Source: Blasia pusilla (Eukaryota). Taken from it: a DNA stretch of 64,000 nucleotides. Under the pieces are notes generated by a model. That model saw only the letters and a program-made list of their open reading frames with translations. It had not been told where the DNA came from and searched no databases. A program made the position numbers and the translations under genes. Positions 525-25,200 of the stretch are shown piece by piece. The DNA is taken from contig CM114271.1 in the NCBI GenBank assembly GCA_050084515.1, positions 34,906,001 through 34,970,000 on the forward strand, read 5' to 3'. Within the stretch, counting starts at the first letter, position 1. Each line of letters starts with the position of its first letter.

Positions 525-887
525 TGTCTCGACTTTTCTAGTAGATCGAAAAGGATCCATAGGTTACTTTGGAGGAGGTCGGAGGTCAGCCTTTGGAGGT
601 AGAGGATGGACTATTGAGAACAAGGGTAATCTTAGAGAGCAAGTTTTCCCTTTTTTTGGCCTATTCAGATCCATATTGAAATATCTATTTTTTGGTTAAA
701 TTCCACTTAGGAGCATAGTCAAATTTCTATTTCTGAAAGTGGCCCTTGACCCGGCCCCTATTGTTGATCAAATACCAAGGAGGTAACTTGCGAGCACATG
801 TTACAAAGGAGAGAGGGAAGGGCAGAGGGTAGTGGTATATCCAAGGAGAGTGAGTTCTAGAGCTCATTCATTCTTTGTTCAACCTCT
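525..887 (+). repeat. Degenerate partial copy of terminal repeat A of the DNMT/PHD Gypsy family
   Basis: Begins tgtctcgacttttctagtagatc (consensus tgtcacgtcttttaggatagatc) and follows A as far as gagctcattcattctttgttcaacctct. Abuts an inverted copy. Confidence 0.7.
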
Positions 888-1500
888 CCCAAGGCTCCCT
901 CCTTGACTCTCGGTCAATAGTAGAAGGTCAAGGGTCACTTTCAAAAATATGAATTCAAATATGCTTATAATAGGAATTTACTTAAAATAGTGAGCTCCTT
1001 GGTATGACTGTGAATGACCCTGAACAAGGGGAAACTTGCTCTCTCAGGTTATCCTCGACCACTTGAGGCTATCCTCCAACCTCCTCGAAGACAAATCAGG
1101 GATTCTTGTCACTTTGCTATAAAAGATATGACAACTATCATGTGCATACAAATCGGTATCATCAAACATAAACAGATAGACACAAAATACCATACTGACT
1201 CGTGACATCTAAATACAAAGACAATTGTATGTGTACCAAAATATCTCTTAACGTCCCTCTCGTGAGTGGTTATATATCTCTACCTCCAGATTGTCATCTA
1301 TCCCTACCTACCATGATGACACTAAGAGCAAAAAGGTTGGGTGCTCACGCGGCCCCATCATTGATTGTTTTCTTTTCATACATGTTACTAATATTAGTCT
1401 AGATCTATGACTACCTTGTATCTACTTTGTGTACATCTCGTGCACATCTATCGATCATCCCTGAGGAACCCTAGCTAGAGGTGGTATCAAACATGCTATG
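888..1500 (-). mobile_element. 3' end of an old DNMT/PHD Gypsy copy: PHD C-terminus, 3' UTR, B, spacer, partial A
   Basis: Minus strand gives HIACLIPPLARVPQG at ~1455-1500. The 3' UTR matches 13890-14060. B lies at ~1136-1250 and the B|A junction at 1131-1140. Confidence 0.75.
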
Positions 1501-2182
1501 TGCTACCCCCTCTTGGACATTCATTATAGATCAATTTTAGCAAACAGCTTGGACAAGCAAAAAATGGAAAACGCCCTTGCCCAATTTGGGAGGTGGGTCG
1601 AGTCTTTTCTCGTACACTATCAGCGGACTATTTTCAATAAATTCAATGGTTGGTTTAGAAAGCTGAGAAGAAATACACTACTAGGTTTCTAGTTAAATGT
1701 CATTTTAGGGAGTTTTAGCTCTAGTGGCCAACTGTGAATGACAAAACCAAGGGTTCACAAGGCGGGAAAATCAAACAATAGGCAAGAATTGGCGCCTTTA
1801 ATTGCCACAACCATTCCAATAACTTATAGAGAAATTACTCTTGAGGTTGGAAAAATACCACCAAATAGCAATAGTCGTTGAAAGATAGGGGACAATAATA
1901 GATAATGTGGCTACTATTGAGAAGATCTACAAAAGTCATTAGGTCAATCCAACTACAATTTTGCTTGGAACAAAATGCTTCATCTACCCTAAAGCTGATC
2001 CAGACAATAGGAGCTATATGATAAGGGAGATTGACCAACTTCACATAGAGAATGTCCATACATTTCTTCTTGAAAATCCTTATACCCTCAAAGAGACATT
2101 TTGTGTTATGGTTGATATAGTTTATTTGTGCTTCGAGGAAAAAAACAATGAGATCTCTCCGAAGCTCTCACATTCAAGTATC

Positions 2183-2701
2183 TATCACGTCTTTTAGGAT
2201 AGATCATTGAGATCTAGTAGAGGCCTTTGTGAGTAGTGGAGAACAGGCTCAATAGGTTGAAGATGACATGTTGAGGCCTCACGAAACCTGAGAGAGCAGT
2301 TTTCCCCTTCGTTTCGGCTCATTTGGAGCCATATTGAGGAGCTTACTATTTTAGGTAAGTACCATTTTGAGTATATGATCAACTTTATATTTTTGGTAAG
2401 TGGACCTTGACCTCCTACATCAGGTCAAGAACCAAAGAGGTGACTTGGGAGCATAGGTTACCATGGAGAGAGCTTGGGAGAGGGGAGGGGTATACCTCAA
2501 GGAGAGAGAGCTTGAGAGCTCATTCTGTCTTTGTTGAACCTCTTGGCATTAGGCGGCGGAGCTATGGTCTTGATTGCCTTGTGTGTGTAACCCAAGCCTC
2601 TCATTAGGAGAGTGGGTTTGGTTTGACATTGAGAGAGACATGTGAGAGTGCACACATGTGAGCACTATGGTGTTGTGAGAGAGATTGGATCTTATTTTAC
2701 A
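2183..2701 (+). repeat. Terminal repeat A alone (5' end of element), followed by a putative self-priming site and leader
   Basis: Runs tatcacgtcttttaggatag ... gatcttattttaca and aligns with the A part of 12451-12968 and of the solo copy at 41494-42129. It is not followed by B. Confidence 0.85.
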
Positions 2702-5700
2702 AAGAGAGAATGAGTGAGTGAGAGAGCTTCATGGGGAGCTCCCTGGTTGCTCGATGTTTGGTGCAGTTGGGGGACTGTCTTCCCCGCTTCATGGCTCATG
2801 GGAGTGCTCAACGGAGCAAGAGCCGTGCGAGTTTGCTGTTTTGCTTTGCTGATTTTTTGTACGGGAGAGTGGCACGCGGTAGCACTACCCAATTTTCGAT
2901 AGGAATTGAGTATGGGGGAGGATTGCTCCATGTCGGTGCTCTTGTTTCTACCAATCCATCAAATCTTTCTTTGTGAAAGTTGGGAAAAGTGGGTGTCTAG
3001 ATTAATCCACTACATTGGATGGTAGTGTTGTGAATAAAAACCCTTACTTAAAAATGCCAGAAGATTCAAAGCCATACACACCCGCCATCCACTTTGCTAG
3101 TTCTTGTCATTCAAGCAAGCTAGATCCTGTGGACGCCCACCTAACTTCAACAGTCACTCTTCATATTCACACAAGCTTCCACATTGTTTGTTCTAGATTT
3201 TATGAGATTGATATTGTTGGGTTGAATTTACCTTACATTTTGCGTTAGGGTGTCTTTGATAATCCAGAAGTGATATTTTTTTGGTGATCTTGTATTTTCC
3301 TCATCAAGCTTTCATGTTGATTTGTAGACTTTCTACATGCGCACCATTCTCAGCTTCTTGGTCTACTTATGACAACTCGATTAGGTTTTGTTTCTACCGT
3401 ACGTACTCTATTTCATGATATTCTCGATTACTTTTCTATTTTTTTTCAATATTGTGCACTTACATTTGCTTCCCCCATATCATGTATTTTGCATCTAAAA
3501 CTAGGTTAGTGACAAATAAAAGAACAACAAGTAATTTCCCATAACACCATTTATTGTTGTATGTTATAGAATTATGGATCTCTTTATAGAATGATTGAGT
3601 ATATCTACAAGCCTACCATCACCATGGTTATGTGGACTTCGCTCTTTGCATTTCTTTATCCACACTTCCATCTTCAAGTTACTCACCCTCACTATTGATA
3701 CTAATTAGCATGGAATTCGGTTAGTCTGCCCTTCCTTGCAAACCAAAATGATTTTTAATAACTTAAAAAAATATATTTTTCATTTAAAAATGTAAATATA
3801 ATTTCAACTTGAAATTCTTAAATTTTAAAAGAGTAATAAAATTTCATTTAAAAATAATTTCATTCCTCAATGAAAATTCAAATAATATCCAACTCCCCTG
3901 AATAATTTCATCATTGCATAAAATTTCAAACAATACATACTATTCCCCTTCCACTTCTCTCACCAAAATAACATCAACTAACTAAATCATTAGTTAATTT
4001 TAATTAATAAAGTGATTTCCATTTTCCATTCAAATTAAAATTTCTTTCCCAAAATATCAATTTTGACTTAAAAAAACTATATACATATATTTTAAATAGT
4101 AATCAGATTTTTACTGCAACATTTAAATTACTTTTTTTATTTTCTTAAATTATATTAAAAGAGTAATAACATGATTCCACTCTTTTAAAGAATTCCACAC
4201 CATAATTAGAATTTAAATAATACCCCACTCCCCTTAATAATTTCACAATTCCATAAATTTAAAAATAAAAATTCACTAATAAATTTTAGTCCATCAAATA
4301 TCTCGTTTTTTCCGTTAAATTTTATTTCTTTTATCGTCAATTTGATTCAGAATTAAAAAGTAAGAGATCATTATTTATCTTTATTATTTCATTACTCATG
4401 TGTTTCTTCCATTCATTATTTCTTCACATCAAATACGGATGTACAATTTCAAATACCCATTTTAAATGTCTGATGTCCTCCGATGGGTCTCTTCGTTTCC
4501 GCCCGGCATCTCATGAGCGGGTCCCATCGACCCGCGCACCCTGCCCAGTTGCAACCGTAGGCCCGGTCGAAGAATGGCGTCGTTATTTTCCTCTTTTTCT
4601 TTGCCGGTTTAGGATGATAACCGGGAACGGGTAGAACCAGTAGCGCCTTGCTTTCTAGCGGCACGAATCCAGAAGTGACCCGGAACCTGAGTCCTCGGTG
4701 GCTTGGGAGAGCGGGCCGTGGACTCCGTTACAGCGGTACTGGTACATACAGTGCATGGATGGAAAGGTTACGTGCGTGCTAGGACAACGTTGGTGTTCAT
4801 TCACTCGAAGATTGCCGAACCGAATCTTGGTCACGCGAAGACCGACCTTCTTCCCGAGCGCGATTGTTTGCGAAGCGCGCGCAGATGATGGCGGCGAATC
4901 GTGCAGGACCATTTCGGTGGAGTGGCGATCCGGGTCGATCGGTCGGTGTGTCGATCGCCCGGGTGGAGTGGAGTGGCCGGTGGAAGTATGGAGGTTGCGA
5001 GCAGAGCGTCAGAAAGGCTGGCTTTCTTGAGCGAGCGTCATGGGGGCCGGTCAGTCGATTCAGACAACATGCCGAACGGAGGCGCCGGAGAGTGGTCGTT
5101 GAATACGTGTGTCATGGATGTTTCCGACTTGCGAAGAAGCGTTCAGGGCATGACTGTTCCACCCCTGCTTCCGCAATCTCATCTGTGATTTCCGCGAGCG
5201 GATTTGGGAGTGGTTGATGCATTCTTAACCACACGGTTCGTTTCGTTTAGGTGCTAGCGAGTCTCGCCTTTTAAGCACGAGCGCGAGTTCGTCCCACACC
5301 GCGCTTTGTTCTATGGGATGAATCGAGGAATCATATTTATATCGTTAGCATTTAGTGTGGAGTGAATTCCACGAGTACCGAGTTGGTCATAATCGATTTA
5401 ACGTACTGTGTGAATGTTGTAGTACCATGTGACCGGCATTCGCCATGGAAAGAGTGTCGAGCTTGAGAACAAGGAGAGTTATGGGGAGGTGCGTGTTTAA
5501 AGAAACGTGCATGCGCACTCGAACTTTCATGGAGTTCTAAGCATGCCATTGGAAGACAGCACCGACTACTTGGCTGTCACATGGGAGGCTGTGCTCTTCT
5601 CCCTGTATTACAAGGTTTCTCCTTGGTATGACCGACAGGCGAGGAAGACATTACGTTCTCCGTAGCATGATGCCCGGGTTCTTGACAGTGAAGCCCTTCC

Positions 5701-8700
5701 TGGTCGCCCGGGGCACCGAGGAGAGATACCACGAAATCCAATAACGACGCACGAATGCCAGCCCGGCGTTTCTGCGAGAGGGCACCGATACGTAAACATA
5801 TGACGCGGAGATGAGAGGTTCTAATACACCGGACCGCGACATGAATGCATGAGCCCTCATGCTCATATTTGCCCCTTGATTCGAGCTTTAGGAGGCCTTG
5901 AATCTGACCCTAAACCTTCATGGTTGCGTCCGAACGTTAAGTTTTCTTTTTCCTCCTGCAGCTGACTTTCTAGTTGTGAATTGACTTTTCCTCTATGCCT
6001 ACGAAATGGCCGGTGATCTAGCTCATACTGTCGAACTTTTATCACACATCTACTACAATTTTCATATCGAATGACGTCGCAACCACCGCTCCATGGATGA
6101 TGCTTATTGAAATTACGCTATTGAAGCGTCCACAACGGTGACGTCACGTTCAAAGCACCCCGTAAGAGTAGAGCACAATTTGGGATGCGAGAGAGTTCTG
6201 TGTGCGAAAATGTACAGATCTCGATAGCTAGAAAGTTCATGTATGGGATCGAAACCGGAAGGCTGAAGTGTCGCCACCGTCAAAGGGTCGTCATGTTATG
6301 TGGCAGGGACTTTAGGAGGTAATCCCGTGTCATTCACGAACAGTCCGAGAGTCATTCCAGATCTGGACTCGCACGTGGACTCCGGATTTGGGTGACCAGT
6401 GATGTCGGAGGATAAGAGAAAGTGAGGATTTAGGTCAGAAGTTTTGACGAGGATCCCGAAAGGTCTTGAAGGTGGAAATTGGATTGAGAAATTGGGAAAT
6501 CATCACGATATCCGGGATCAGATTCTGAAGCTGGAACTGGATCTCGTAAACTGGAAAATTGTCACGACCGAACAAGGAACGAGTGCAGTCTCCCATCGAA
6601 GGGGTGAGCAATGAACCAGCATAAGTTTCCATCACGAGAGAAAATGATCCGTGCTACAATGTGAGAGGCAAGTCAAAGCAGGTAACAAGGAAATGGACAA
6701 GCCTTCTTGACGCTGTCCAACATTTTATATGGATTTTTTGAGTGTTCTAGTCTTTATGGTAAGTTTCGTAAGTAGATCACGAGAGCGTTCATGGGGATCA
6801 CCACATAGCAAGATAGGTAAAGTCAAAACTTTAGCAAGCTGTAAAGACGTAAGATGGGAGTCACGATTGGTAGATGAGACGATAGGCATGTTCTCAATTC
6901 CAGGGGTTGGGTTAGAAAATGTTGGGGAACAACTTAGGAGGCAATGAGTTAGTACCAAGACGAATGATTGTTAAGGATTGAGCATCATATGTCGGTATGG
7001 GGTGAAAGAAATTTTAGACATGACCCATCCGCCACTAGGCTTCTCTCATATACAATCAAAAATGATAATGATTATTATTATTGGAAAGTGTCTCTTCATT
7101 TTAACAAAGGTCTTTTATAGCAATAGAGTCGCCCGTTATGTGAGCCAATAAGATTGGTCAAATTCAATTATACACATAGGATGGGTAATTCAAAATCAGA
7201 CATAGTGGGATCAAGGATATCATGAATCTATGTTTACACTATGGTCCTTTTACAACCCCTATAATTATATGAGAATGTGGGGGAGAGGTAATGAATGTTT
7301 CACACCAAGGCTTGGATTAGAGCAAGGCCAAGTCTTCTATTTGGATTTTTTTAAGGACATCAATTTATGGACTAGTTATGGTAACCATGAAGAATTCAAA
7401 TAGATAATAGCTTACTTCAAAATGTTCTAATCTATAATAGAAATTTTGTTGGCCAATTTACCATTTCATCAATCCAATTCAAATATTATTTCTAACTATT
7501 GGCAAGTGAAATTGATTTGGCCCAAAAAATATGGTAAATTTTAGTATTGTATAAATTCGTTACAAACAAAACAAGAAAATTAAAACTTTGGATTTTATAG
7601 AATCCAAGTTGGAATAAGCTCCTATGAGGTTATAGTTGATGTTAATTATGGTGGGACTCTAGTAATTTATCTTATAACTTCTTGCACTTATCTTATTGCC
7701 TTCCCATAATAGAAAACTAGTATAAGTTGTACAATTCACAGGTTTATATTATCTCTCATAATTAATTTTCATAATTTTTGAGTGCCATTTAAATCAATTT
7801 TGAGGTATCCTATTGGTTTAGAAGGTGAGCGATCTCATTGGCTTAAAGTGCCAGGTGTCAAGAGGAGAAGAGTCTGTAAAATAAAGGGACATCTCCAATA
7901 ATATGATGATTTTAAAACATATTTCCTCTTTGGAAAGAACTCCACAGTGATATGAAAGCGATATATATATATATATATGTCAATCAAAGACTTCTAAGAG
8001 TAAGGAATAAAATTTAAACCTACAAGGTTGAAATCATAATCCTAGAATGAAATTCCAAGGGTAGGGTTGATAATCTAAGTTATGGCTAATTTTTTTCTCT
8101 CTCATAGTGTTGTGGCTCTGTCGCTATTGCAATGTGGCTTCCGAGACTCGAAGAATTGCTCTAAATGTAGTAGTGTTTGATAGAACTTATCCCTTAGGCA
8201 TGTTCCATTGTATCTGGCATTAAGAGACTTTGGCCCAACTTATGACTCGATCACTTCTATCAACTAGTATAACTATTTTGAAATATATTCATTTGTGATA
8301 TCTCCATCTATTCTCAACGAGGGATAGATAATTGGAATCCATCTATTCTTCTTTGTACATTTATTCTCTTTATTTTAGGTCTTTTTGCTAACCTGATATT
8401 ATCTCTGTTTGTTTTTTCATCCATCATATTCTTCATTCAAAGTCTCCCATCCATAAGGCTAGCTTCTATCCTTTCCTATTCCATCCCATTCCCTGGATCT
8501 GATACTTTATTCATGCTCCATCAACTATTCTACCTATCCATTTTGTGGATACATCGAGTGGCACTACCTTCTATTATTTTGATCTTGTACTAAATTTTCT
8601 TGCCATGAACGCAACTATGAATTTCAAGTTTATCCCAATTCTCCATCCCTATCTATCCATGAAATGGGGCATCATGGATAGATAGGGATATGATCATGAT

Positions 8701-9130: not shown

Positions 9131-10415
<1,285 letters not shown>

Positions 10416-10619
10416 GTTGGTGATAAGGTCCCTCTAACTCAAGATATCCATCCATCCTTACCTACCATAACTTACATCTCTAGGAAGCTAAGAGCAAAAA
10501 GTTCAGATACTTATATGGCTTGATCGTTAGTCGCCTTCTTATCATCCATGTCACAAACAAAAGTATGAATCAGATTCTATGTCTATCCATTCTTTACTAT
10601 ATGTACATCTGAGGCATAT

Positions 10620-12278
10620 TCATTGTTCTTGAGAAAACTTACTGAAAGGTGGCGTCAGACATGCCATGTGCCACCCTCTCGAACATCCATCATAGACTAG
10701 CATAGTGGATGCAGCACGGGAAAAATCACACAACATACAACGCAAGTATGTAGAGACTATTGTTGAGCTTAGATAAAAAAATACCATCAATGTTAGGAAG
10801 GTGACATGACGCACAATGACATACAGGGTCCTTCCAAACCATACCATCCTTTCCCTCTAATAAGAGAACATCAAATGACAACACATCACACACTCTCAAG
10901 AAAAAATCCCCTACATTCACATCCAATGTCATAGGTGCCATTTATTGCAAGTAGATATTTTCTCCCTGATAAAACCTTTAGATCTTCGGTCGAAAATCAC
11001 CTCTCCAAATAATTGCATACTTCAAAGTATCCCGATGCTATGCAATCACCAATTGCAAGTTCTCAAACGCCATGGGCATAACGCTCCTAAAAAACTCAAC
11101 CCTATGAGAATATGCTCACATCTATACATCAGGGTCATCAAGATTCAACACCTCGCTAGTATCGCAACAAATAGCTATAGGTAAATTAGACTCTCGACCA
11201 TAAAGCAAAAAATACGGTGAGAAAAAAGCTAAGGGTACGATGTATGCTTGCTAAATCTATATCCCATCGCTAATCACAAAAATTGTAGGTCCCAATCTCC
11301 TAGGTGATCTCTTTGCAAGTCATACTTGCACAAATCTCTCTTCACCGTCAAAACAACTCTCTCAACTAGACTATCCGCCTCAAGATGATCTCGCGAAGTA
11401 GTGGGATAGTTTATCGACGCCCAATCACACAAGATCTAAAAACTCCCCAAAAAATTCCATACCCTGGTCTATCAACACCTTAGTTGGTCTGCCATAATGA
11501 CTCAACACTCAATCCAGGAAGATATATACTACTCCCTCACTCGCTTTGTCTGGCAATGCAGCCAACTCTATCCACTTTGAGAGGTGCTCGACCATCACCA
11601 ACACATAGAGACTATGATGCTAAGTCAAAGGTAAAGGTCCTACAAAATCCAGAATCCATCTATAGCCTAAATCCATGATCGATAGTGGATGGAACTATGG
11701 AGTAAGAGCATTGAATGAATTCCAGACTCGATCATGCACTATGTATCCAACAATAAATTGTTGAAAGTCAGTCTGCATGCCTCGACACCCATACTATATC
11801 TAGAACAAGTTGTACGTCTACTTCATTCCAAAGTGACCAAACTCCACATAGGCATGCTTCACCAAACATGCTCTCTGCGAAGGATGAGGCACTATGCGTA
11901 CTCTACCATCCTCCTAAACTCACAACATATGCATCCTCTTCCCACTGAAACCGTTTGGCTCGATGTAGCATCCAATCCCCCTCTCTAGCACCTACTATGC
12001 TCGTGATGCTACAAGTACGTAAGAGCGAAAAGAGTACTCCATCCTCCTGAATATCTCAACCACTTGTCATCTTCTCATCGGCCTCTAGATCTGAGGACTC
12101 TTTGTCGGTCCTCGCCATTCAAGTCCCAACACTCTCGCTCTACGTAGCCAACCATCCCAAACAGGTCGATGCGTGCTATCCCACACCATATCCTTATCAC
12201 TCTCTCCATACCAACGAGCACTAGTCACATCTCGTTGACTTGAGCATGGGTTACAGATGAACCCATTTGTATCCAGGT
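10620..12278 (-). pseudogene. Decayed Gypsy DDE integrase plus C-terminal PHD finger
   Basis: Minus strand across frameshifts: (N)LDTNGFICNP RNase H/IN linker, GHFGMK (HHCC), WILDFVGPLPLT, VLIDQGMEF, DSLVERVV, then LRCMLCDFSRAASTMLVYDGCSRGWHMACLTPP. Confidence 0.85.
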
Positions 12279-12323
12279 TGTCACGTCTTTTAGGATAGAT
12301 CGATGAGCTCTAGTAGAGCGCCT
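12279..12323 (+). repeat. First 45 bp of repeat A (left end of a younger nested copy)
   Basis: tgtcacgtcttttaggatagatcgatgagctctagtagagcgcct; left flank aggt (ACCT on the minus strand). Confidence 0.85.
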
Positions 12324-13053
12324 TGTCGTGCACATACACATCGCTACACAACATACATTGCTGTCACCAAACACACACAAAAACACGCACAATCCCATGC
12401 TAACTCATGGCATCCAAACAACGAGACAAGAAGTACCAAAATATCTCCAATAAAATAAGTTCAAATCTCTCTCACAACACTATAATTCTCACATGTGTAC
12501 ACTCTCACATGTTTCTCTCAATATCAAACCAAACCCACTCTCGTGATGAGAGGTTTGGGTTACACACACAAGGCAAGCAAGACCATAGCTCCTCAGCCTC
12601 ATGCCAAGAGGTTCAACAAAGAGAGAATGAGCTCTCAAGCTCTCTCTCCTTGAGGTATACCTCTCCTCTCCCCCAAGTTCTCTCCATGGTAACCTATGCT
12701 GCCAAGTCACCTCCTTGGCTCTTGACCTGATGTAGGAGGTCAAGGGTCACTTACCAAAAATATAACATCGATCGCATACTCAAAAGGATACTTACCTAAA
12801 ATAGTAAGTTCCTCAATATAGCTCCAAATGAGCCGAAACGAAGGGAAAACCTGCTCTCTCAAGTTTCTCGGGGCCTCAGCAGGTCATCCTCGATCTACTT
12901 AGTATGTCCACTGCTACTCACGAAGGGGCTCTACTAGATCTCACCGATCTATCCTAAGAGATGTGACAGTTGTCGTGCACCACGGGCAGAACCACACAAC
13001 ATACACCGCAAGTCTGTAGGAACTATTGCTAAGCTCAGATCAACTATATTGTC
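12324..13053 (-). mobile_element. Nested 3' end of a third copy: PHD fragment / deleted B1 / spacer / A2 / B2
   Basis: B 12324-12450, A 12451-12968, junction gtgaca-gt-tgtcgtgca 12963-12979. This is fused through a tgca microhomology to PHD-region sequence at 12980-13053. Confidence 0.85.
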
Positions 13054-13888
13054 AGAGTTCCGCGGGGAGTTTCAGGCCTTGCGTGATCAGACACTGATTG
13101 ACCACTACACTACTTCACGAGATCATCCTAAGGCGGATCGACTAGCGGAGCGGGTTGTGCAGACGGTGAAGAGATGACTACGCAAGTATGGCTTGCAGAG
13201 AGGTCACCTAGGAGATTGGGACCTCTAGTTGCCGTGGTTGGCGATGGGATACAGATTCACCAGGCACGCATCCTTAGCGTCTTTCTCACCATACTTGATT
13301 TTGTATGGCCGAGAGCCAGATTTACTTGCGGCTATTCGTTGAGATGTTGAACCTTGATGACCTTGATGTATGGATGCGAGCATGTTCTCAAAGGGCTGAA
13401 TTATTCCGGAGAGTAATGCCCATGACGTTTGAGAACGTGGCGATTGCGCAACATCGGGATATATTGAGGTATGCGACTATTCGGGGATGTGGTCATCGAC
13501 CTACTATCCGGAGGTTCCATCAAGGACACTATGCTTACATATAGCAGACGGCATCCACGACGTTGGATATGACTACCGGGCGTTCCATCTTGAGAGTGCG
13601 TGAGGTTTTACCATCAGGTGTTCTCTTATTGGAGGGACACGATGGTATGGTTGGAAAGACCATGTGCGTAACTATGCGCGGTGTCACCTTCCGAACATCG
13701 ACAATACAGTTTATCCGAGCTTAACAGTAATTCCTGCAGGCTTGCGATGTATGTTGTGTGGTTCTGCCCATGGTGCAGCCACTATGCTAGTCTGTGATGG
13801 ATGTTCGAGAGGATGGCATATGGCATGCTAGATGCCACCTCTCACTAGGATTCCTCAGGGAGGACGGATGTGTCCCAAATGTACATAG
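13054..13888 (+). pseudogene. Decayed Gypsy integrase C-terminal half plus PHD finger
   Basis: EFRGEF...HPKADRLAERVVQTVKR...FSPYLILYGREP, then CMLCGSAHGAATMLVCDGCSRGWHMAC*MPPLTRIPQGGRMCPKCT* (Cys4-His-Cys3). Confidence 0.9.
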
Positions 13889-14055
13889 AGTAGGTAGTTC
13901 TATATTCCGACTTGTGTATGTTACATGGATGACAAGAAGGCGACTAACGATGGGGCCACATGAGCATCCAACCTTCTTGCTCTTAGTGTCTGAGAGATGT
14001 ATGTCATGGTAGGTAAGGATAGATGGCTATCTGGAGTTAGAGGGATCTAACCATC

Positions 14056-14069
14056 AGGTAGGGGGGCGA
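14056..14069 (+). promoter_or_regulatory. Polypurine tract immediately 5' of repeat B
   Basis: aggtaggggggcga directly precedes ttggagatatttt. Equivalent degenerate tracts occur at ~10405 and ~1250 on the minus strand. Confidence 0.75.
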
Positions 14070-14197
14070 TTGGAGATATTTTGGTACTTCTTGTTTCGTT
14101 GTTTGGATGGCATGAGTTAGCATGGGATCGTGCCTGTTTGTGTATGTGTTCGGTGACAGCGATGTATGTTGTGTAAGCGATGTGTATGCGCATGATA
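14070..14197 (+). repeat. Terminal repeat B (B1)
   Basis: ttggagatattttggtac...gcgatgtgtatgcgcatgata is the reverse complement of 12324-12450; followed by AACT. Confidence 0.9.
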
Positions 14198-14720
14198 AAC
14201 TGTAGAGTTGGATCTAAAGAAGGTGGAAGCTAGGATTCAAAACATACCACACTTCCTAGTTTTTTACTTTGTCCGAGGCGATAATGATCCCATCTCAGTA
14301 CATGGATGTTAGTTGTGCGCAGGCATGACGGGAAATGGAAGAATTGAGTAGTTGATCCGGTGTTGAGTGTGTTGTTGGCATGGGGCCGACTACTGCTATA
14401 TAAGATGCCCCATAGTTTGCAATAGTTGCATTGGGAGGTACGTCCGCCAAGTTTTTTTGGCTGGTCGCTACGCTATGTGAGTGTGGAAATGGTATCACTG
14501 CCTCATGTTCCAAGGTGGTTGTAGAGGAGGTGGTGGACTTGCCTTTCGAGCCTATGCTCGGGTTGTCCATCTCAGATTCACGGCAAGTTGCAACTTCTAA
14601 GATTGCGGTGATGCCCACTAGACTCGTGAGAGAGCATGTCATGGTGTCTCCACAAGTTGTTTTGTTGGATAATTGGGGAGAGATCTTCCAATTGGTAAGC
14701 CTAGGAGGTAGGGAGTGTTA

Positions 14721-15095
14721 ATCTTGTTGGATTCAAGAACGCAACCCTTGATGTTGGGGAAAGCTGGGTTTACAAGATTGGGCTTGACAAGGGCCAATGC
14801 GGAGTATTGCCCATTCATGATACCAAAATCCTTACGTGGAGCGGGCACGATACAGTTTATAACCTGACATGAGGTCATGGTGAGGATTTGACCAGACATC
14901 CTTCAGATGAGTCCGTGGTGAGAGCCAAGGCGATAATGATCGATGTCGAGTCTTATGATGTTTTGGTTGGAGGAGCAGTGTTGTACTTAGTAGGATTAGA
15001 TTTGGATTACAGGAAGGAGTCACCATCCTACGGACCAAGATGGAATTCGGGTGATGGGCAACTTAGCTCGTTACTCATTCGGTTTATGAGTGGAG
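14721..15095 (+). pseudogene. Retrotransposon aspartic protease relic
   Basis: ILLDSRTQPLMLGK (DSG mutated to DSR) ... SYDVLVGGAVLYLVGLDLDY. Confidence 0.75.
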
Positions 15096-15439
15096 TGATT
15101 GAGCAACGATAATGAGAGATGGCGACTCATGCAGCATTTAGCAGCGCGATTATGTGGCCTAAGGATTTGATTGAGAGTCGTGTCCACAGAGAGTAGACAC
15201 CCGTGACCAACACCCCTATGGAGAGGAGTGCTATCGTGGGAACATCATTCTATGAAGGAGAGGTGCCTTTGTAGGGCTTGAGTGGGACGCTTTGACGCTT
15301 GGTGGAAGAGCATGTGCAGATGGTGCATGTGGAGTGAGATGTTTGCCTTAGAGCGTGACGGGTTAGAGGAACCTGAGGTAGTTGGGAGTGCTACCATGTC
15401 TCCCTTGGACACCTTATCCATTGTATGGCGCATCCTAGA

Positions 15440-16030
15440 TGAGGGTATTCAAGTGTTGGATCTCTTTGAAGGGATCAACACTAGGTTGGCTAAAGTTTTG
15501 CAAGTAGGAATCCGTGTGCAATAGTACTTGTACATGAAGCTTGATGAGGTTGTAAGGCACTTCTTACTTCAACATGTGGTGAAGTTGGGCCTCCATTTTC
15601 GTGACTTTGTTATCTGCGTCGGACGTGTAGGGATACTAGAGTTCCTTACTAAGGGAAATTTCTTTGGTGGGGGCACATGAATCGAGTCGGGTGGGGATTC
15701 TTGATTTGGTCATTATAGGTTGGCCATATTAGGGCCAATCAAGTATTGGAAGAGCTAGTGGTTTAGTGCACAAATTGTCTGGGTTATTTTGGAAGAGGAT
15801 CTTGCGATACTCGTAGGCAGTTAAAAACATCATTCCTGATCTCTAGCTTACATTCTGGATGCGTACCAATCTTAGGTGATTTGCGGTCATGAGTGGTGAA
15901 GAGTGCACATTCCGTTCGTACATGAGTCGACCATGCAATATTTTAGGATGCGGCAAGCGTGGGTTCACAAGCACATCGCTGGCGTCTATAGTGGACCAAC
16001 TTGGTGCTACATGAGGTGTTGTGCAACGTT
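15440..16030 (+). pseudogene. DNMT3-like C5 cytosine DNA methyltransferase domain embedded in Gypsy pol
   Basis: Ordered motifs: I IQVLDLFEGI (~15447-15476); II YLYMKLD; IV DLVIIGWPY*GQS (15703-15741, from GWPCQG); GL...SGLFW; VI AYILD/..PILGD (~15845-15880, frameshifted ENV); VIII DAASVGSQAHRWRL*WTNL (15947-16003; compare DNMT3A DAKEVSAAHRARYFWGNL). Motif X is not recognisable. Confidence 0.85.
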
Positions 16031-16444
16031 GGATGAGGTTACAACATGTCGATCACGGTTGTTATACTTGTGAGCCCCATGCCTACCAATACGGCCCATA
16101 AAATGGTTGGGGGCGAGACCCGAGAAGATCGACATATCATGGATGAGCAGGAGAGACACCCTTGGACTTCTTGGAATGCTTTGCAGGTATGCTGGGAGAT
16201 AGTAGCCATAACATCGAGGATGGCATATGATCCTCCAGACCGAGGACATGAGAGTTCTAAGTTAGCTATAGGAGAGCAATGGAGTGTTATTGTTCGAGAT
16301 GGGGTTGCACCATCGCAAGCACGGATACTCATGCCAAAGAGTCCTACAATAGTCACGATGGAGACTTGGGAGCCAAATATAGACGTTGAGTTGTCTAGAG
16401 GAGATCAGCGTCGAATACCTTAGTTCCTTAGGAGTCATAGGAGT

Positions 16445-18028
16445 TTTTTTACATTCAATATGCATGATTTTGGTACATTGAAGGGTCGGAGGATTTGCAT
16501 TGAGTTGTCTAACAATACATTGATCTTCCGATGACCCAAAAAAAAGATTGAATACGGGCAAAGTCCGTGTCCGCAGACTTGACATGTCCATGTCCGTGGA
16601 CTTTTGTCCGTCCTTAAGATGAACATATCTATGTGGGTGCGGGTACCGACAGCCCGCACCTCAACCCGCCCCACCCACAATGTAGCCCCGGGTTTGAGCC
16701 GCCCACTAGGCCACATCTAGTCTAAGAAGCGTCACCAGCTTTGTAGTCGGCATTGGCCTGCGTAGGGCGGGCTATGGTTTGTGGTTTGCATAGGGTCAGT
16801 TCAGGCCAAGGCGGGCTTAGGGCGCGCCAATTTTTGCCCGCCTCCCTTAATTTGAGCGTACACCAGTTCCCATCCGGGCCATGGGGGTACCAAAAAGATC
16901 TAGGCGGGGGATCTATTTGGCATGTCTGTTTCTGTGCAACCATGCCTACAAGTACATTGATATGGAGAGGGTCCTCAAAGCAAGAGCCATGACTTTTTTG
17001 GAGCAACACTAGTGGAGATGTCGCATGAAGAATATGCATCTGCCACTATTATGCCCACAAAGAATGATGTTCATCGCAAGTGGACAGATACCATTAACTA
17101 TTTCAAATTGGAAGACAAGAAGAATACGATATTTTGGGGCATCAATCCTCACAAGAAGGACTATTTTGTTCAGGTGGCAATTCTTACCATTTTCGTTAAG
17201 GACCGCACGTGGAGAGATCGAGAGGGTAATGGATAAGATCTTGGCAGGTCTGGATTTTGCTAGGTGTTATATTGATGACATCGTAGTCTTCAGCGCAACA
17301 ATTGAGGAGATTTGGACATTTGGAGGAGATATTTCGACAATTACAATTACATGGGTTAAAGCTACATCCATGTAAGTGCAAATTCTTTTATGACCAGATT
17401 GAGTACTTGGCTCATAGGATATACCCATGTGGCCTTGGTGTTCAATAATGAAGGTAGAGGCTATCTCACGCATTCCACGCCTTATAGATATGAGTCAAGT
17501 TTGCGCATTTATGAGACTAGCGCGCGAACTTTTATAGACGGTATATAAAGGGTTTTAGTTTGATTGCGAAGCCACCAACCTTGTTGGCCAAGGTGGATCA
17601 CAAGTGGCACTGGGACAATGAGCAAGAGAAAACATTCCAACTGCTCAAGGATAGGTTGACGTCCATGCTGATGTTAAGGGGACCTATCGAGTGTGTCTCT
17701 TTGAGTCGCATACAGATTTGAGTATGTTGTAACAGTGCTCACCCAACATAATGTTGAGGGTAGAGAATTCATGATTACTTATACTAATCGCTCGAACAAT
17801 GCTGTAAAGGCGAAATATTGCTCGTTTGGGACGAGTGCTTGATTGTAGTATGGATCATCGCACATTTTAGGTATTATTTATTCACAAACCCTTTTACCAT
17901 TATTATTGATATCAACCACTTAAATGGTTGATGGAATTTGACTAGCTTAGAGGGAATCTTGCGTGGTTGGCTCTATCGTTGTAGGAGCATGATTTTCAAA
18001 TGGTGAATCGAATGGGGATGCTGAACCT
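16445..18028 (+). pseudogene. Gypsy reverse transcriptase and RNase H relic, interrupted at ~16538-16944
   Basis: FR*P|YKYIDMER, LVEMSHEEYASATIMPTK, MDKILAGLDFARCYIDDIVVFS (YIDD 17268-17279), HTD and YTNRSNN RNase H motifs; ends MLN at 18028. Confidence 0.9.
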
Positions 18029-18669
18029 TGTCGTGTGCATACACATCGTTACACAACATACATCGTTGTCACCGAACACACACAAACACGCATGGTCTCA
18101 TGCTAAGTCATGCCATCCAAACAACGAGACAAAAAATACCAAAATACTTCCAATGAAATAAGATCCAATCTCTCTCACAACACCATAGTTCTCACATGTG
18201 TGCACTCTCACATATCTTTCTCAATGACAAACCAAACTCATTCTCCTAATGAGGGGCTTGAGTTACATTCATAAGGCAAGGGACCATAGCTCCGCTATTC
18301 CGTGTTAAGAGGTTCAACTAAAAGAGAATGAGCACTTAAGCTCTCTCCTTGAGATATACCCCTCCCCTCCTCCCAGACTCTCTTCATGATAACTCATGCT
18401 CCCAAGTCACTTCCTTAGCTCTTAACATGACGTAGGAGGTCAAAGGATCACTTACTAAAAATAGAAAATTGACCATATACTCAAAATGGTATTCATATAA
18501 AATAATAAATTTCTCAATATGGCTACATATGAGCCGAAACGAAAGGGAAACCTGCTCTCTCAGGTTTCCCAGGGCCTCAATAGGTCATCTTCAACCTCCC
18601 GGATCTATCCTCCACTAATCACGAAGGCGAGCTCTACTAGAGCTCATTACTATCCTAAAAGACGTGACA
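18029..18669 (-). repeat. A+B terminal repeat unit (641 bp)
   Basis: tgtcgtgtgc...gacgtgaca; flanks acct (left) and agtt (right). Confidence 0.92.
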
Positions 18670-20270
18670 AGTTGCTTCACGAATAACATATAACTTGCTC
18701 CATCCAAACAGGATCCTTCACGTCCTTGAATGCTTCATATGATGTTGATGCTATTAATATGACATCGCGTATCCTCAATGCTATCGCGATAATCTATTGT
18801 TATAAAAACTCTATCTGAGCAACCATCCCAACCTCACACCCCAGATCTCCCTCAACTCCTTTACGTGGTAGATCTCTACTTCCACCACAGACATACCCAC
18901 GAGAAAATCCAACCCCACATCCCCTTGACACACAAGCTCTAGGCCAACCGGGACCTCTAGTGACCTCTCTAGCCCTCGATCTGGATGTAAACTCAGGGTG
19001 CAAGCTAAAACAACCAGTGCAAGTATAACCATACCGCTAGCAATTGTTACATTGAAATACCCCTAATGCATGCCCATCCACTCTTCCATGCTAGGACACG
19101 CGTCCACTTTCTTGACAATGGGCTCCATCACATGCCAAAAAAATTAACTATTGGCATCTTTTGCTGACCCGCCTATGATGACATGGGTTGTGGTGGCACA
19201 TGCTTGCGATAACCTCCCTGAGCTCGTGATACCATATTCCTTTTTTGCAATACACATTGTTACACTTGTGATGTAGGAAATTGTGATTACTTTCATGTGT
19301 AACTCATGTCTACTACTCTCTCCTCGACCACATTGCGTTCACTGCACTCTGCCATCTCAAAGATATTTCTCAACATAGGTGAGGTGTGCATTAATAATAC
19401 CATATCCCTCACCTACATGTATCATTCTAATATCCCAAACCATGATTGAACAATCTAGGCCTATTTCATCCCTTAAATGACTAATCAAACAACACATGTG
19501 AGTAAATTCCTCCCACAAACTCTCCCTTATGTGCCTATGGAAGTTATGTGCACCGTATCTTCTTTGTCCATAACCCCTAGTTATTCCTCTGCAACTCTAT
19601 GAAGAACTCAACCATAGGGTTGAACTTAGGACGAATCCGCCTGGATGACACAAGTGCCCTAATCCAACTTATCCCTCATTGACTCTCACTAGTCGCAAAG
19701 GAAATAACCTTCCCTAGCTGCTCTTCATCTTGAAATGGCTCAGTCCATGACACATATTATGTGTTATAGTAGAGTCTCCATGCATCAATCTTGATCGCGT
19801 ATCTACGGGAGAACTAATGATAATCGCCCATGAACTTCCCCTCTAGGTGTTGGAACATCCCGTAACATGTTGTAAAAGGATTGAACTTCGAAATCTCTAA
19901 TCCTTTACGAAAAAAACACCAACTCATAAACTATGAAGTCATACAACTCTATAGTATCCATTGCTCCCGAAAACCTACTCGATCCCCGACCCAATTTTCC
20001 ATCTAGTTCACCCAAATGGTGGGATTTCACCAACACCCTCACCCTTGTTTAAGAATGAAATAGAAGGACGTCAAGACGGTCCTTCACGTGGAAACTCTCG
20101 AAGCCTCGTACCATTTTACGTATAACCTCTAAGACTACTCTAAAGCACACCACCTCATCTCTCAAAGTCTCAAAAGAACATCGTGATGACCCTTATGCCC
20201 CCTCACATGATCATTCTCAATCTCACGATTAATTACTCAATCACTCAAACTAAACATATAACACTTACTC
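18670..20270 (-). mobile_element. Very decayed gag/protease relic of another LTR retrotransposon
   Basis: Minus-strand LEDTRCHI-like protease motif near 18770 and a Cys knuckle-like remnant near 19250. It appears to continue across the inversion into 14202-14270. Confidence 0.4.
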
Positions 20271-20863
20271 TCCATTACCTCCTTTACACTACTGCTGTAA
20301 TAGCTTATCCGATATAGTAAATTTTTTGATTTAATTCAACTTAATCGATGCAAAAAGAAAACCTACTTGTCATATTGCCCAAGGCCTTAATAAACATCAT
20401 CAACCTCTTGAAATTCTCCTCCAATATCTTCAAAAATATTCTCGCCTATATCTTAACAATAAAGATTATCAACTCGCAAAAGTTTAGTAACTTGGACTCC
20501 ACTAATAATGACTTTTAAAGAGTATTTTGGTTCACACCCATTATCTCAATTTTCAGATCAAACTAGGCCATTAACATAAAAATACCCTAAAACATGTGAC
20601 ACCTTGCATCCCACCTTCTAAGTACTAGTAGAAAGCGGTCTATAAATATCCGCTTATATAACATAAGTGGAGGAGGAAATCCCTGGAAGGCTCATTAAAT
20701 CATGTCATCCCCAATATCAATTCTTTTCTTGCACTATCCACAAAACATCAAGCTCACAAGACATGGGTACAACAACAATGTATATTTGGCGATACCATAA
20801 GAACAAAATCCAAAAGGTGAAAGCACCCTTCTCCAAAGTTCATTGTTTGCGTATTTAATATAA

Positions 20864-21052
20864 AACCCGAGGCTAACAGAAGGCCTCACCAAATGGTTGA
20901 AATTCTCATTGGTTCTACTCTAGTCCAACCCAAGGCTAACAAGAGGCCTCACCAAATGGTTGAAATTCTCATAGGTTCTACTCTAGTCCAACCCGAGGCT
21001 AACAGAAGGCTTAACCAAATGGTTGAAATTCTCATTGGTTCTACTCTAGTCC
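20864..21052. repeat. Tandem repeat, 63 bp x3
   Basis: aacccgaggctaacagaaggcctcaccaaatggttgaaattctcattggttctactctagtcc repeated three times with few substitutions. Confidence 0.95.
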
Positions 21053-22205
21053 ACTGATACTAAACATCCTTCAGCTTTACAACACAAACCCTGATTCTAC
21101 TCCTGGATAGGAAGACATAATGATGAAAGATTATCAATCTAATGGAGAGGTTTGGCATTTGTTTCCAAGGTTGCTGAAAATCTCTCCTGGCAGGACAACA
21201 GGTGAAGCTGCTGGGAGCAAATGCGAAACACATGAGGGCATTCTGTGTATAGAAGTAAGGAAAAACCTGGAGACATTAAAAATCAGAAGATGGAAGAAAC
21301 CCTTGACCACAGCTGGGATTATTGATTTTAGGGTTGATCTCAAGAAGAAAAGACTGAACTGAGAATGAGTTTTTGTCCAAACCAGAAAAAAGAGGTCCCT
21401 GAAAGTAGAGTACTAGAAAGTGTATGGACAGGAAGGTAAGAGGAGAAAAGTGGAGTAAAGATCTACAATACAACGAGACATTTGCGTAAAACCAGCAGCT
21501 CACTTCTGTAATTCTCTACTGACCAACAATTGATAAATCAATCCCATACTGGAAACCATCTGCAACAGGCATTTGCATGCAATCATGCACTTATTCCTAC
21601 ATACGTATACAAGAAGCACAGTGATTAGGAACTCACAGAGAACATCCTTCAGTTACATCTCGCCGACACAGGGAAAAACCTCCGAAGGAATAATTATAGT
21701 TATACCTGCTACAATGACACTCTGGGCTGCTTCAGCAGCTACAAATCATCTCAAATAATGATCAGCTAATATACATCATCGCTTTTGTACTGTTTAGTAG
21801 GCTTTGAACTACTGGAAAAAAAATTCACTGCACAACTTCAGCTCCATGATCACTGAGCTCAATCTACAAAGGGATTGGTGATCAGAAGATCAAGTAACCT
21901 TTATGCTGAGCAAAAAATCACTATTATACAATTGAGACAAGAAGCTCAAGAATGTCCATCTCTGCCAACGAAGCCATAGCATAGGTTACCAGGTTACCTC
22001 CATTCAGACAGAAAGATGACTTCCACATAAATTCTGCACACATCTTGTCACCCGTGACCAAAGCCTACACCTATCACCTGGAGCGTATTCCCATATGCCA
22101 TATCCTTTCATGTAAATGGCGTCCCTTTTCACATTCTTAACTTGTGGATGACTACCTTTAGAAAATGCACCTTTTGACGATTAACTTTTTTTCTGGATGA
22201 ATTAT

Positions 22206-25200
22206 CTATGAGCGCAGTACCACTCCACCAGTGATCCTCCAGCCGCCTTCTCCATGCTGTAGTTCATATCTGGTTGTGTATGTACTTCGATATGAATCTT
22301 TATGTTCTGGATTCTTGTTGTCAAATAGACGAGCTGCCTCTTGCAAAGTTGCTTCAACTATTGCTCTTCTTCCGTCATCACTCACAGTAACACTATCAAC
22401 ATTCAATCCTACAAGTCTATACTCCCAAAACCAGCCATTTCTTGCCACTTCATTCACGCGTTCAGTCCAGCTTTCCAGCATCTTCCCCTCCAGCACCTGA
22501 GCCCAATCCAAAGAAAGTGTCACCACTGAAGTCAGGCTTTGTGGGTAACAATAATGCATTGCAAGCCAAACAAGACTAACCTTGACCGTGAGGTGGACAA
22601 GGAAAGAGCAAGTAATCGATCACAATGAATTTACCTCGGACAGATGGCCAACAGAATGGGTGGCACCGAGAGCTTGTGCTTTAGCAGTCTGCCATTTCCG
22701 GACTATCTGCTCAGCCAGTCTTGCATCCATTTTGGCCAATTCCACTGCCTGCCGTCCCTCCAACAACCCTGAAAGTATCAATCACTGTCACTATTTTGGC
22801 TTGAAGTGGTACAAATCAAATTATGTCAGGCCAGCACAGTTCAGTATTGCTAGGGCATAATCTCCCAAACAAGCCACAATTACAACGTGAACGCTCAACG
22901 TATTGTTTTCTATCAGACCTGATGAGGCTGGTGCTGTAGTAGCAATGGGTGCGCTCTCAACAACATTGTTAGCACTAGGTCGTAAAGGCAGGAACCGCAA
23001 CCCAGTCATAACCAGGGCCCCAAAAACTATCCCAGAGCATGCAATCTGCAGAAGGGTCAAACCACCCTGACTAGCTGTTTGGACAGATAAATTACTGTGT
23101 CCACTTGCAAAATTTCCACTCTCCCCGATATCACCCCAAGCGTGCCCTGGAGGTCTAGTTGAGAGAATTGAAGCAGATGGGCCAAATCCCAAAGGAGATG
23201 ATGTCTCAGGATCCTGAAATTCAGTGTCTGCACTCTGGTGAGATCCATATTGCTCAAAATCCTTGTCCGGTGGATCTGTGGCATACTCCACCTGGTTGGC
23301 CATACCACTTGCTGTACTTTCTATGACACCAGCTCGTTTACCAAGTGGGAACACTTTCTGCAGTGTTGACATTGCAGATGCTTTGACATTGTCTATTGCT
23401 GCACCAATCCTGGAAAGAGCAGTAGAAGATCCCCCTGCTGTTGTTTCCCACTGTTCTAAAATACTTATCACCTGAGGATCATCATAGTAATCACCCAGCC
23501 TGACTTGCAAACTTTCTGTATTCCGGAAGGTGGGGAATACCACCTCTGCCAGCCACCTTTCCAAAAGCTTGCATAAACCAGGAAGCAAGTCTCCATCTTC
23601 ACTTCCCTCCGAATGTGAATACACAAATTCAATTACAGCAGGATCCCTGTACTCTTCAGTGCCATCTTGCAACCCTAAACACGCCATTGACTGGTCAACT
23701 TCGCCCATCAGAAGCCAACACATAGCTCTCTCAAGACTGTGGTCCAGTGGTGCACCAAGTTCACCATCTGACTCCTGTGAGGCTTGCAACTGCCAAAACA
23801 GCTCATCTGCCTTCACAACAAAAACTGGCTTGTTGGCAATGAAGCCTTCCGCTACATGAGCCAGAGCAACTCCATACACTTCAAAGCTTTCTGCTGGGAC
23901 ATTATCTGGTGTTGAGTCCCACAAAGCAACCTGAAAGATTTCAATATGAGTATTTCTTACCTTACTATAATGACCATCTTGATACCTCAGAAACTAGCAT
24001 ATGTATAATTATAGATAGCACATGTGGCAGGTATTGAACTAACTACTAGAACTCATGAGCTTGCAGTTTCTACCAATTGATCACCACTACACTTGACCCG
24101 CATATAGACCATCTGCACATTGAAGCCCAAGCACCGAGTAGTAATCTCCAAGTCAAACTTTAGTTTTCCCCTCATGTCTACCAAGGACATGCAAGGCCAC
24201 AGACCTATAAACGAAGTAAAACTGTACCTGCTCTGCTGCTGTCATGGAAGAAAATGCATCTTTGATGAACTGTTCCCGTGTGAAACCTAGAATAGGTGCG
24301 GCTGCACCTCCCTCACCTACAGCCCACAAGATGCTTCGCAGACCTTGCAGGCCTTCTTCTCTTTGTGAGGCATGTTCTTTGTCTAAAGGCAACGTGAGCA
24401 GTTCCAATACACACCGTGGTGTTAATTCCTCCAAGGTCTGCTCAATCTGTTCCTGCAACCCTAGGGCCAGACTGCTTCCTCCTTCTTCCTGGAAAAATAA
24501 AAATAAACACCTTTTATCATCCAGCAATCAAAACTACATATTCGGTTTCAGATCCTTACCAGCATGAGAAACATAAAGCAAACAGATCAATACAACTCTG
24601 GAAAAAACAGAACTTTCACGGAGTTCACGACACAAGACCTAGATCCAGGATTCTAGACTTGATACATTAAGTCAAGAGACTTAATGCAATTAAGACACTA
24701 AAAGTATATCCTATAGCCTCGTTATTTGTACTCTTAAAGCTTTCCTTGACTTCTTTTGTGCTGGCAGCATGAGATACATGGTTCAAAGGTTTCCAAGGGA
24801 TTGATAGTCCATTAATTGGAAAACCATGGATACAAAGAGACATCTGAAGATGTAGCTCGTTTTATTCTTTAAAAAATGCCTGCAGCAACTGCGATCGATG
24901 ATCAGGGCATCTTGCTGTTCCTGTTAAGACTTTCACAGGAAACTCAGAATGAGCGTGGAACGAGAGAGAACAGGGTTTGTGGAGTTCAGAATCAGGGGAG
25001 TTCAGCCATGGGGCAGAGAGGATTCTATCATAATCTGTTTCAAGGTCTGGTCAAATAGATATTTCTAGGATTGATTTTGGGCTAGGTAATAAATTATTTG
25101 ACGTAGTCTGCCACTTTCACAGATAACCTTCCTTACTCCAGAATTAGTGAGTCGACAAGATCAAATTTCAACCACGAATTGGGATACCTGGCTAAGCCCC

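Follow-up and report, generated by a model that had tools for sequence, protein, structure and literature searches.

Introduction

Ngaro/PAT-like elements, which belong to the DIRS order of retrotransposons, have split direct repeats (A1-B1A2B2), a tyrosine recombinase, and no target duplication. The repeat order of a DIRS element (A-coding-B-A-B) together with Gypsy domains is already in print for KnitGypsy-Dnmt3 of Klebsormidium nitens (de Mendoza et al. 2018, Fig. 4c; PMC5890265). Here we describe a retrotransposon family with this order of repeats, copies of which lie in a stretch of 64,000 nucleotides from Blasia pusilla (assembly GCA_050084515.1, contig CM114271.1, positions 34,906,001 to 34,970,000; called the window below). 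One of these copies, E, has been rearranged by an inversion that breaks exactly at the internal joint between its B and A repeats and is bordered by a 4-bp duplication of its own.

The family is like KnitGypsy-Dnmt3, as far as that element is described, in having a Gypsy-type Pol with an internal C5 cytosine methyltransferase and the A-coding-B-A-B order (PMC5890265). It differs in the source of its copies, which are metagenome contigs and a different genome of the plant lineage. A PHD finger, target duplications, the relation of the repeats to the polypurine tract (PPT) and primer-binding site (PBS), a form lacking A2-B2, and rearrangements are known from the present family, whereas the available passages of PMC5890265 are silent on them. 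No further literature naming the KnitGypsy-Dnmt3 element was found. With the Ngaro/PAT-like elements our family shares the repeat layout, in which the B/A joint marks where a circular intermediate opens; in contrast to them, it has a DDE integrase (PF00665, PF17921) and a 4-bp duplication (8 of 10 testable copies). Because it makes 4-bp duplications and has no tyrosine recombinase, the family is outside the DIRS order.

Retroviral-type integrases are held to use the linear ends of cDNA, and the junctions of circles are regarded as dead ends or as substrates of side reactions. The integrase of prototype foamy virus (PFV) reportedly cleaves the junction of circles with two long terminal repeats (2-LTR circles; PMC1180852, see also PMC4372172). 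In the available part of the HIV-1 work (Delelis et al.; PMC1905944), integrase tetramers cut the palindrome at the 2-LTR junction, and this palindrome resembles the integration-site consensus. The present family would be like HIV-1 in that a palindromic ..CA-NN-TG.. joint of two ends is cut internally, and it is like it in that the target of the inversion, site X, resembles the junction (PMC1905944). It differs in that the retroviral cleavage is presented as a side reaction of extrachromosomal circles, whereas here a chromosomal rearrangement would have come from an integrated junction.

IS10/Tn10 undergo intramolecular transposition. Alternative (reversed-ends) transposition of maize Ac/Ds is treated in the available parts of PMC3744419, PMC9910405, and 10.1101/2021.03.08.434479. 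The locus resembles both systems, in which facing ends are cut and inserted nearby on the same chromosome, so that an inversion with target duplications results and the DNA between the ends is lost; exact ends, inverted duplication copies, and loss of the inter-end AC were all found here. In those systems DNA transposases act on separate elements or ends, whereas here a retroelement integrase would have acted on a junction inside one element. No report of a chromosomal inversion made by an integrase from an internal junction was found in a thin literature search, which is a weak basis for absence.

Structure of the inversion and its duplications

A nest of decayed retrotransposons lies in the window, whose DNA is of the plant lineage. 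The terminal unit of the elements is a 641-bp block, TGTCAC...CGACA, which splits into A (~510 bp) and B (~130 bp). For comparison, metagenome contigs were scanned with P0004, a Pol protein of the family, giving 80 loci with a total of 770 kb (numbered L001 etc.). Features of the window are collected in Table 1.

An exact B end and an exact minus-strand A start each adjoin one AACT, and the two AACT copies are mutually inverted. As the initial annotation had reported, B1 stops at 14197 with AACT directly after it, the sequence being ...GCGCATGATA(14197) AACT(14198-14201) GTAGAGTTGG... (AACT GTAGAG after 14197). The minus-strand A start at 18669 is likewise preceded by AACT, the plus strand reading ...GACGTGACA(18669) AGTT(18670-18673) GCTTCACG... 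The intact junctions in the window, at 10275-10278 and 12968-12971, read ..GACA AC TGTCA..; the spacer AC is absent from both new joints.

The claim that the rejoined flanks continue a protease relic also held. For the rejoined sequence ..KLYVIREATVELDLKKVEARIQ.., each of the relatives listed has the homologous V(I/T)RASEPRGATVELDPQRGE, and the peptide across the target site, X, reads ..VIREATVELDLKK.., matching the same segment of the relatives. X was tested at the protein level and, in addition, with a conserved DNA patch. In the relatives, X reads GGGGCAACT(G/A)TGGA(G/A)TTGGAT (target ..GGGGCAACTGTGGAG..) and occurs once in 14/14 printed loci; in the window, ..GAAGCAACT stands at one border and AACTGTAGAGTTGGAT at the other, and 15 nt found 8 nt upstream of X in the relatives are missing. 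Because X is single-copy in these 14 relatives, we conclude that AACT is a real duplication and not a chance 1-in-256 match. No other copy of the X-flank sequence was found in the window by self-blast, and the gag flank had no match in the loci by blastn.

A second duplication ties the inverted segment to E. AGGT stands immediately before the A start at 12279 and, read on the strand of the B end at 18029, comes directly after that end as well. This site (site 1) is single-copy in relatives L001 and L002 (..caattgAACCAAGATGCG..) and reads ..CTGAACCT at one border and ACCTGGAT.. at the other in the window. The AGGT/ACCT pair therefore identifies the LTR at 18029-18669 as the 3' end of E in flipped orientation; the 5' end of this element lies at 12279. 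The chance of both 4-mer matches is ~(1/256)^2.

The host of E is an older copy, el2, whose coding order gives an independent map. By tblastn, its gag lies at 19988-19314 (-), its gag end, protease (PR), methyltransferase (DNMT), reverse transcriptase (RT), and RNaseH at 14374-18026 (+), and the rest of Pol at 12278-10602 (-); the plus-strand piece reaches P0004 residue 480 at 18026, and el2 is collinear across both sites. It follows from this map that site 1 of el2 received E and that 14198-18673 is inverted relative to both flanks. Re-inversion in silico restored PPT-B1-AACT-A2-B2, with AACT replacing AC, and left one AACT at X. The inversion of 14198-18673 is established, and so are the two duplications, the exactness of the ends, and the layout of the family.

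The pieces were assigned as follows. The inverted el2 piece (14202-18028) was identified by tblastn with the gag-PR and DNMT of L001 and with P0004, and by Pfam matches to RVT_1 and RT_RNaseH. For the 3' part of el2, P0004 residues ~481-1054 match 12278-10602, with a PHD finger (PF00628) at 10623-10856. For its gag, residues 108-339 of L001 gag match 19988-19314, and el2 A2 aligns weakly to ~20482. The target-site duplication of el2 itself is too decayed to read. The internal part of E (13061-14068) matches P0004 residues 762-1053 by tblastn, has a PHD finger at 13604-13828, and is 73% identical in DNA to el2 11448-10418. The window pieces map collinearly to P0004. A Pfam search of the stop-free open reading frames (ORFs) of the window gave PHD, RVT_1, and RT_RNaseH fragments only, with no methylase.

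Table 1. Terminal repeats, coding remnants, and target duplications in the window
Feature	Position	Strand	Evidence or remark
A only	2183-2697	+	LTR blast
el2 3' part: RNaseH end, integrase, PHD finger, PPT, B1, AC, A2, B2	9135-12278	-	
el2 A-B unit (A2+B2)	10275-9135	-	LTR blast, junction context
el2 B1	10278-10395	-	Spacer AC 10276-10277; A2+B2 from 10275 down to 9135
AGGT, first target-duplication copy of E (site 1)	12275-12278	+	Precedes A start 12279
First 46 nt of A1 of E (5' end; 46-nt A start), truncated by nested E3	12279-12324	+	LTR blast (to LTR 1-46), alignment
E3, nested third copy, 3' end	12324-13060	-	Blast, junction context
E3 A-B unit (A+B LTR)	12968-12324	-	LTR blast; spacer AC 12969-12970
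E3 B1, last 11 nt	12971-12981	-	PHD-region fragment 12982-13060
E internal 3' part: integrase core (middle onward), PHD finger, PPT (..AGGTAGGGGGGCG)	13061-14068	+	
B1 of E (lone B)	14069-14197	+	LTR blast; end ..GCGCATGATA, CA end mutated to TA
AACT, left duplication copy at X	14198-14201	+	Single-copy in 14/14 related loci printed
Inverted el2 piece: gag end, protease, C5-methyltransferase relic (~15399-16021), RT, RNaseH	14202-18028	+	
ACCT, second (reverse-complement) copy of the site-1 duplication of E	18025-18028	+	
A2+B2 of E (A-B unit), 641 bp, TGTCAC...CGACA	18669-18029	-	LTR blast; flipped relative to rest of E
AGTT, right (reverse-complement) duplication copy at X	18670-18673	+	
gag part of el2	18674-20490	-	Weak A1 remnant near 20490
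Solo A-B unit	42129-41494	-	LTR blast; duplication ACTC
A-B unit	48737-49181	+	LTR blast

Two other irregular joints lie inside E. At the joint 12323/12324, the exact B end of the nested copy E3 meets position 46 of the A1 of E, the two being in opposite orientation. The PHD fragment of E3 at 12976-13060 forms an inverted repeat (85-87%) with the PHD region of E at 13693-13777, 632 nt away, and the palindromic joint at ~13060/13061 is a large deletion or a fold-back.

Repeat layout and ends of the family

Full copies have the layout A1-internal-PPT-B1-2 nt-A2-B2. Both ends were present in five copies (L009, L022, L058, L075, and L077), and the 3' ends of el2 and E3 in the window also fit the A-coding-B-A-B arrangement. 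The 4-bp duplication was exact in all four full copies that could be tested (L075 CATA, L009 AAGG, L077 AATC, and L022 TCTC); L058, in which the start of A1 is truncated, is outside this count. A second form, lacking A2-B2, had exact duplications in four of six testable copies (L011 TACA, L052 ATTA, L066 TACA, and L047 TGTG) and inexact ones in L070 (3/4) and L064 (2/4). The overall count was thus 8/10, and the solo LTR in the window has ACTC. No common pattern was found among 11 known target sites.

The spacer between ..ACA and TGTCA.. was 2 nt in 25/25 junctions (AC in 11, GC in 10, AT in 3, and GT in 1). Among the 44 A matches in the loci, 20 were preceded by a junction and followed by B, 12 were preceded by flanking DNA and followed by the non-B sequence CTCAAAGAAC..., and three more had a variant of CTCAAAGAAC; one further A, at L075 4621, was misclassified by the search pattern. 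None of the 44 was preceded by flanking DNA and followed by B. The same boundary was seen in reads: in run X9, from the same genome as the window, 122 reads pass from A into TACAAAGAGAG.., as after the A ending at 2697 (loose end 18156).

Directly after A1 lies a sequence whose complement is found within A. L009 2018-2045 pairs with A 158-179 at 20/21 positions (score 37 vs. a shuffled maximum of 26), and window 2698-2730 pairs with A ~336-352 at 15/16 positions (score 27 vs. a shuffled maximum of 23); the complementary letters differ between the L009 and window subfamilies. This site looks like a self-priming PBS of the Tf1 kind rather than a tRNA PBS. L080 3361-3878 holds a full-length A2 followed by an inverted partial A (178 to 1), whose start adjoins the flank ..CATT, with no B2 there; this rearrangement sits where A complements the PBS-like site.

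B starts directly after a conserved PPT (..CTAGGGGGGCGA), and A ends directly before the PBS-like site. The A2/B2 joint, ..TTTTCA/GTTGTGG.., is accordingly the last base before the PBS-like site plus the first base after the PPT. From these boundaries, reverse transcription would be expected to yield B-AC-A, the internal region, and again B-AC-A, and an integrated copy would be a circular permutation of that product opened at B/AC/A. Such a permutation would make the B/AC/A junction the natural source of integrated ends. The initial annotation had proposed that the junction is the att substrate of the element; the family layout points independently to B/AC/A as the source of ends, but a PPT-B end lacking A is not special. 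Of 45 PPT-preceded B ends in the loci, 24 were free, with flanking DNA next, 20 had a junction, and one lay at the end of its locus. Some loci were sampled twice, so that ~21 of the free PPT-B ends are distinct, and several have matching duplications. PPT-B without A is therefore a common end form, arising by B1/B2 deletion or as a primary product, and is no mark of a cut junction.

Mechanism of the inversion

On balance we consider it probable that integrase-made transfer of the facing B1 and A2 ends of E into X produced the inversion. E (A1-internal-PPT-B1-AC-A2-B2) would have inserted within el2 at site 1, with duplication AGGT. At its internal junction the 3' end of B1 (..CA) and the 5' end of A2 (TG..) face each other. 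The DDE integrase of the family would have joined both ends to staggered cuts at an AACT target 4.5 kb away in el2. With converging ends, A2-B2 and the intervening RNaseH-RT-DNMT-PR part of el2 would be inverted, the 2-bp AC spacer lost, and the 4-bp target left at both borders as inverted copies. Transfer with a 4-bp stagger predicts the observed letters unaided, except for the C-to-T change in the CA of B1.

The initial annotation had held that the junction of an already integrated copy was cut, that AC was lost, and that both ends moved to a nearby site. The geometry (exact ends, no spacer, and inverted 4-bp copies) fits integrase transfer as proposed, but late cutting is indistinguishable from use of a circle at the time of integration. 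In one version the junction of integrated E would have been cut later. In the other, a circular cDNA with two junctions would have integrated each at its own nearby site in a single event: at site 1 one complex would have taken the A start of the long fragment together with the B end belonging to the short A-B fragment, and at X a second complex would have taken the remaining two ends. Both versions give the identical product.

Shared variants, to which the initial annotation had looked for a common origin of the pieces, gave modest support. A rare transversion, ATGAGCTC, occurs only in the A1 of E (1-46; 12279) and in the A start at 18669, the first 46 nt of E having GAGCTC in common with the LTR at 18669 only; the C at 12308 is kept in 2/58 family reads of X9, in 10/167 of X12, and in none of the contigs compared. 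Similarly, B1 of E (14069) and the B at 18029 alone share a C-to-G change. On the other side, the B at 18029 shares three exclusive transitions, at CpG/CHG-like sites, with the B at 49181 and only one change with B1 of E. Distances among the B copies were rejected as an age test because they are star-like (15/126 between the B at 18029 and B1 of E; 9/108 between the B at 18029 and the B at 49181).

These B comparisons weigh against transfer of the junction, and so do several other results. No second PPT-B end with an inverted A start as its duplication partner was found in the 770 kb of loci; five motif matches in the loci for an inverted A start with a reverse-complement duplication, at L011 (2), L048, L064/L065, and L072, and one more at window 137, were not A-like beyond the motif. 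The form A-B-AC-A-internal-PPT-B, expected if a two-junction circle opens randomly, was also absent from the loci. Finally, the 7-mer CAACTGT is common to X (GCAACTGT) and the junction (ACAACTGT), with a probability of ~4^-7 per register. X (14198-14204 / 18667-18676) can be set beside the junctions at 10272-10281 and 12965-12974; the 4-bp duplication is centered on CA-AC-TG of X, and the 14 relatives printed keep the X sequence in their gag-PR region. The idea that X was cut in a restriction-like way, as a pseudo-junction, was rejected; the joints it predicts do not match those observed.

The conventional alternative is that X received a second, oppositely oriented copy, with duplication AACT and a PPT-B end, and that a crossover between inverted A repeats followed. 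Recombination of the A2 of E with the A1 of the second copy would flip the segment and leave the A-B unit at 18029-18669 and PPT-B/AACT at 14197. The initial annotation had objected that this course needs an extra collapse step. That objection falls away, since PPT-B is an ordinary way for a copy to end, and the left-hand tandem surplus would be lost with the 13060/13061 deletion, which any model needs; one insertion and one recombination suffice. The 24 of 45 PPT-B ends that lack A speak for this alternative, as do the density of the nest (E in el2, E3 in E, and seven LTR pieces in 64 kb) and the star-like distances, which do not mark B1 of E and the B at 18029 as sisters. However, the A start beside X would then be independent of E, and yet it shares the rare ATGAGCTC with the A1 of E; the C-to-G change common to B1 of E and the B at 18029 would be equally unexplained. 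An additional insertion within 4.5 kb and in the correct orientation, plus fixation of an inversion through a ~0.5-kb repeat, would also be required. We regard this course as unlikely, although it is a live competitor.

An origin by repair of a break or by template switching at the inverted CAACTGT draws on the presence of this 7-mer both in the junction (..GACAACTGTCA..) and in X (..GGGGCAACTGTGGAG.., conserved in 14 loci), with a later 1-bp insertion at each joint mimicking a 4-bp duplication. The products expected are GACAACTGTAGAG and GAAGCAACTGTCACG, whereas each observed joint has one base more, and the extra base sits at a different place in the 7-mer in each. Two specific later insertions would thus be needed, against zero for integrase transfer, and the break at exact element ends would have no explanation; we consider this origin very improbable. 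An assembly artefact or a multi-step rearrangement, in which the order and orientation reflect no single event, is improbable as well, though less so. Read depth is ~1-3x over unique parts, with repeats dominating, and other rearrangements lie nearby (the E3 joint 12323/12324 and the palindromic 13060/13061), which counts against a single event. Among the matches listed, no bridging read, joint, or loose end was found at the four key junctions; the matches were mostly to other family copies. On the other hand, the flanking inverted repeats are just 128 bp and 88% alike, too weak to flip an assembly, and a misjoin would not create exact 4-bp duplications at both joints that are validated by relatives. 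A contig from an independent study is, moreover, identical over 14207-14362.

Transfer by the integrase is thus the most economical account and a plausible one, for a single locus with a live conventional rival. The family layout makes sense only if ends arise at the internal joint, and at this one locus the joint looks as if it was used on or beside the chromosome. More tentatively, it is quite possible that this DDE-integrase (Gypsy-Dnmt) lineage integrates from circular cDNA opened at ..CA-AC-TG.., that a spare joint, kept in the copy or present as the second in the circle, is reusable for alternative transposition that inverts or deletes neighboring DNA, and that this locus is the first footprint of it. 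If this is true, every full copy has a built-in breakage site, the family, like Ac/Ds, gives rise to inversions and deletions, here in genomes of the plant lineage, and the old model of integration from circle junctions could be tested with one integrase and one 12-bp site. If instead two copies recombined, the locus is a rearrangement of the ordinary kind within a nest, and the family layout is still worth study.

Coding capacity and relatives

A protein search with the decayed integrase of el2 as the query, X standing for its 19 stops, retrieved a group of metagenome-contig proteins together with a Coleochaete scutata transcript of 1083 aa; the transcript (P0003) is the nearest named relative found. 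By Pfam, the domain order of P0004 is RVT_1, RT_RNaseH, Integrase_H2C2 (PF17921), rve (PF00665), and a C-terminal PHD finger. No Phage_integrase (tyrosine recombinase) match was found in P0004 or in the gag-PR and DNMT ORFs of L001. L001 3195-4508 encodes a C5 cytosine methyltransferase (PF00145, E 7.6e-13), to which window 15399-16021 is matched by tblastn; the decayed ORF of L075 had no Pfam methyltransferase match. Because L001 holds gag-protease, the PF00145 methyltransferase, and RT-RNaseH-integrase, the element is of the Gypsy-Dnmt type.

L001 is nearly intact over 321-6809 and encodes gag-protease (957 aa), the C5 methyltransferase (438 aa, with DLFGG, PCQ, and ENV), and RT-RNaseH-integrase. 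The three coding blocks are in one reading frame with single stop codons between them, and the stop codon between DNMT and RT is at the identical place in L001 and L002. Judged from the reading frames, these single stops may represent programmed read-through.

In el2, the integrase (10597-11706, minus strand) has 370 codons in one frame with 19 stops. A ~360-bp insert at 16541-16900, unrelated to Pol, G+C-rich, and with internal inverted repeats, lies inside the RT, which lacks ~80 residues around it. Differences between the two B copies were transitions in 13 of 15 cases. The decay of the elements looks like methylation-driven C-to-T change rather than indels.

Other features of the window

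The minus strand of 22209-23993 carries a plastid-division gene of the ARC6 type (PF23468, E 1e-62; ARC6-like IMS domain, E 4.7e-26), and because of this gene the window was assigned to the plant lineage. Between it and the 5' remnant of el2, at 20864-21053, a 63-bp unit is repeated three times in tandem, the copies being 94-97% alike. A more distant Gypsy Pol, with ~30% identity to P0004, occupies the plus strand of 41113-43444 and is interrupted by the solo A-B unit at 41494-42129. The A-B unit at 48737-49181 has an internal deletion and mismatched flanks (GAGA and CATA); it is either a recombinant of two insertions or another rearranged end.

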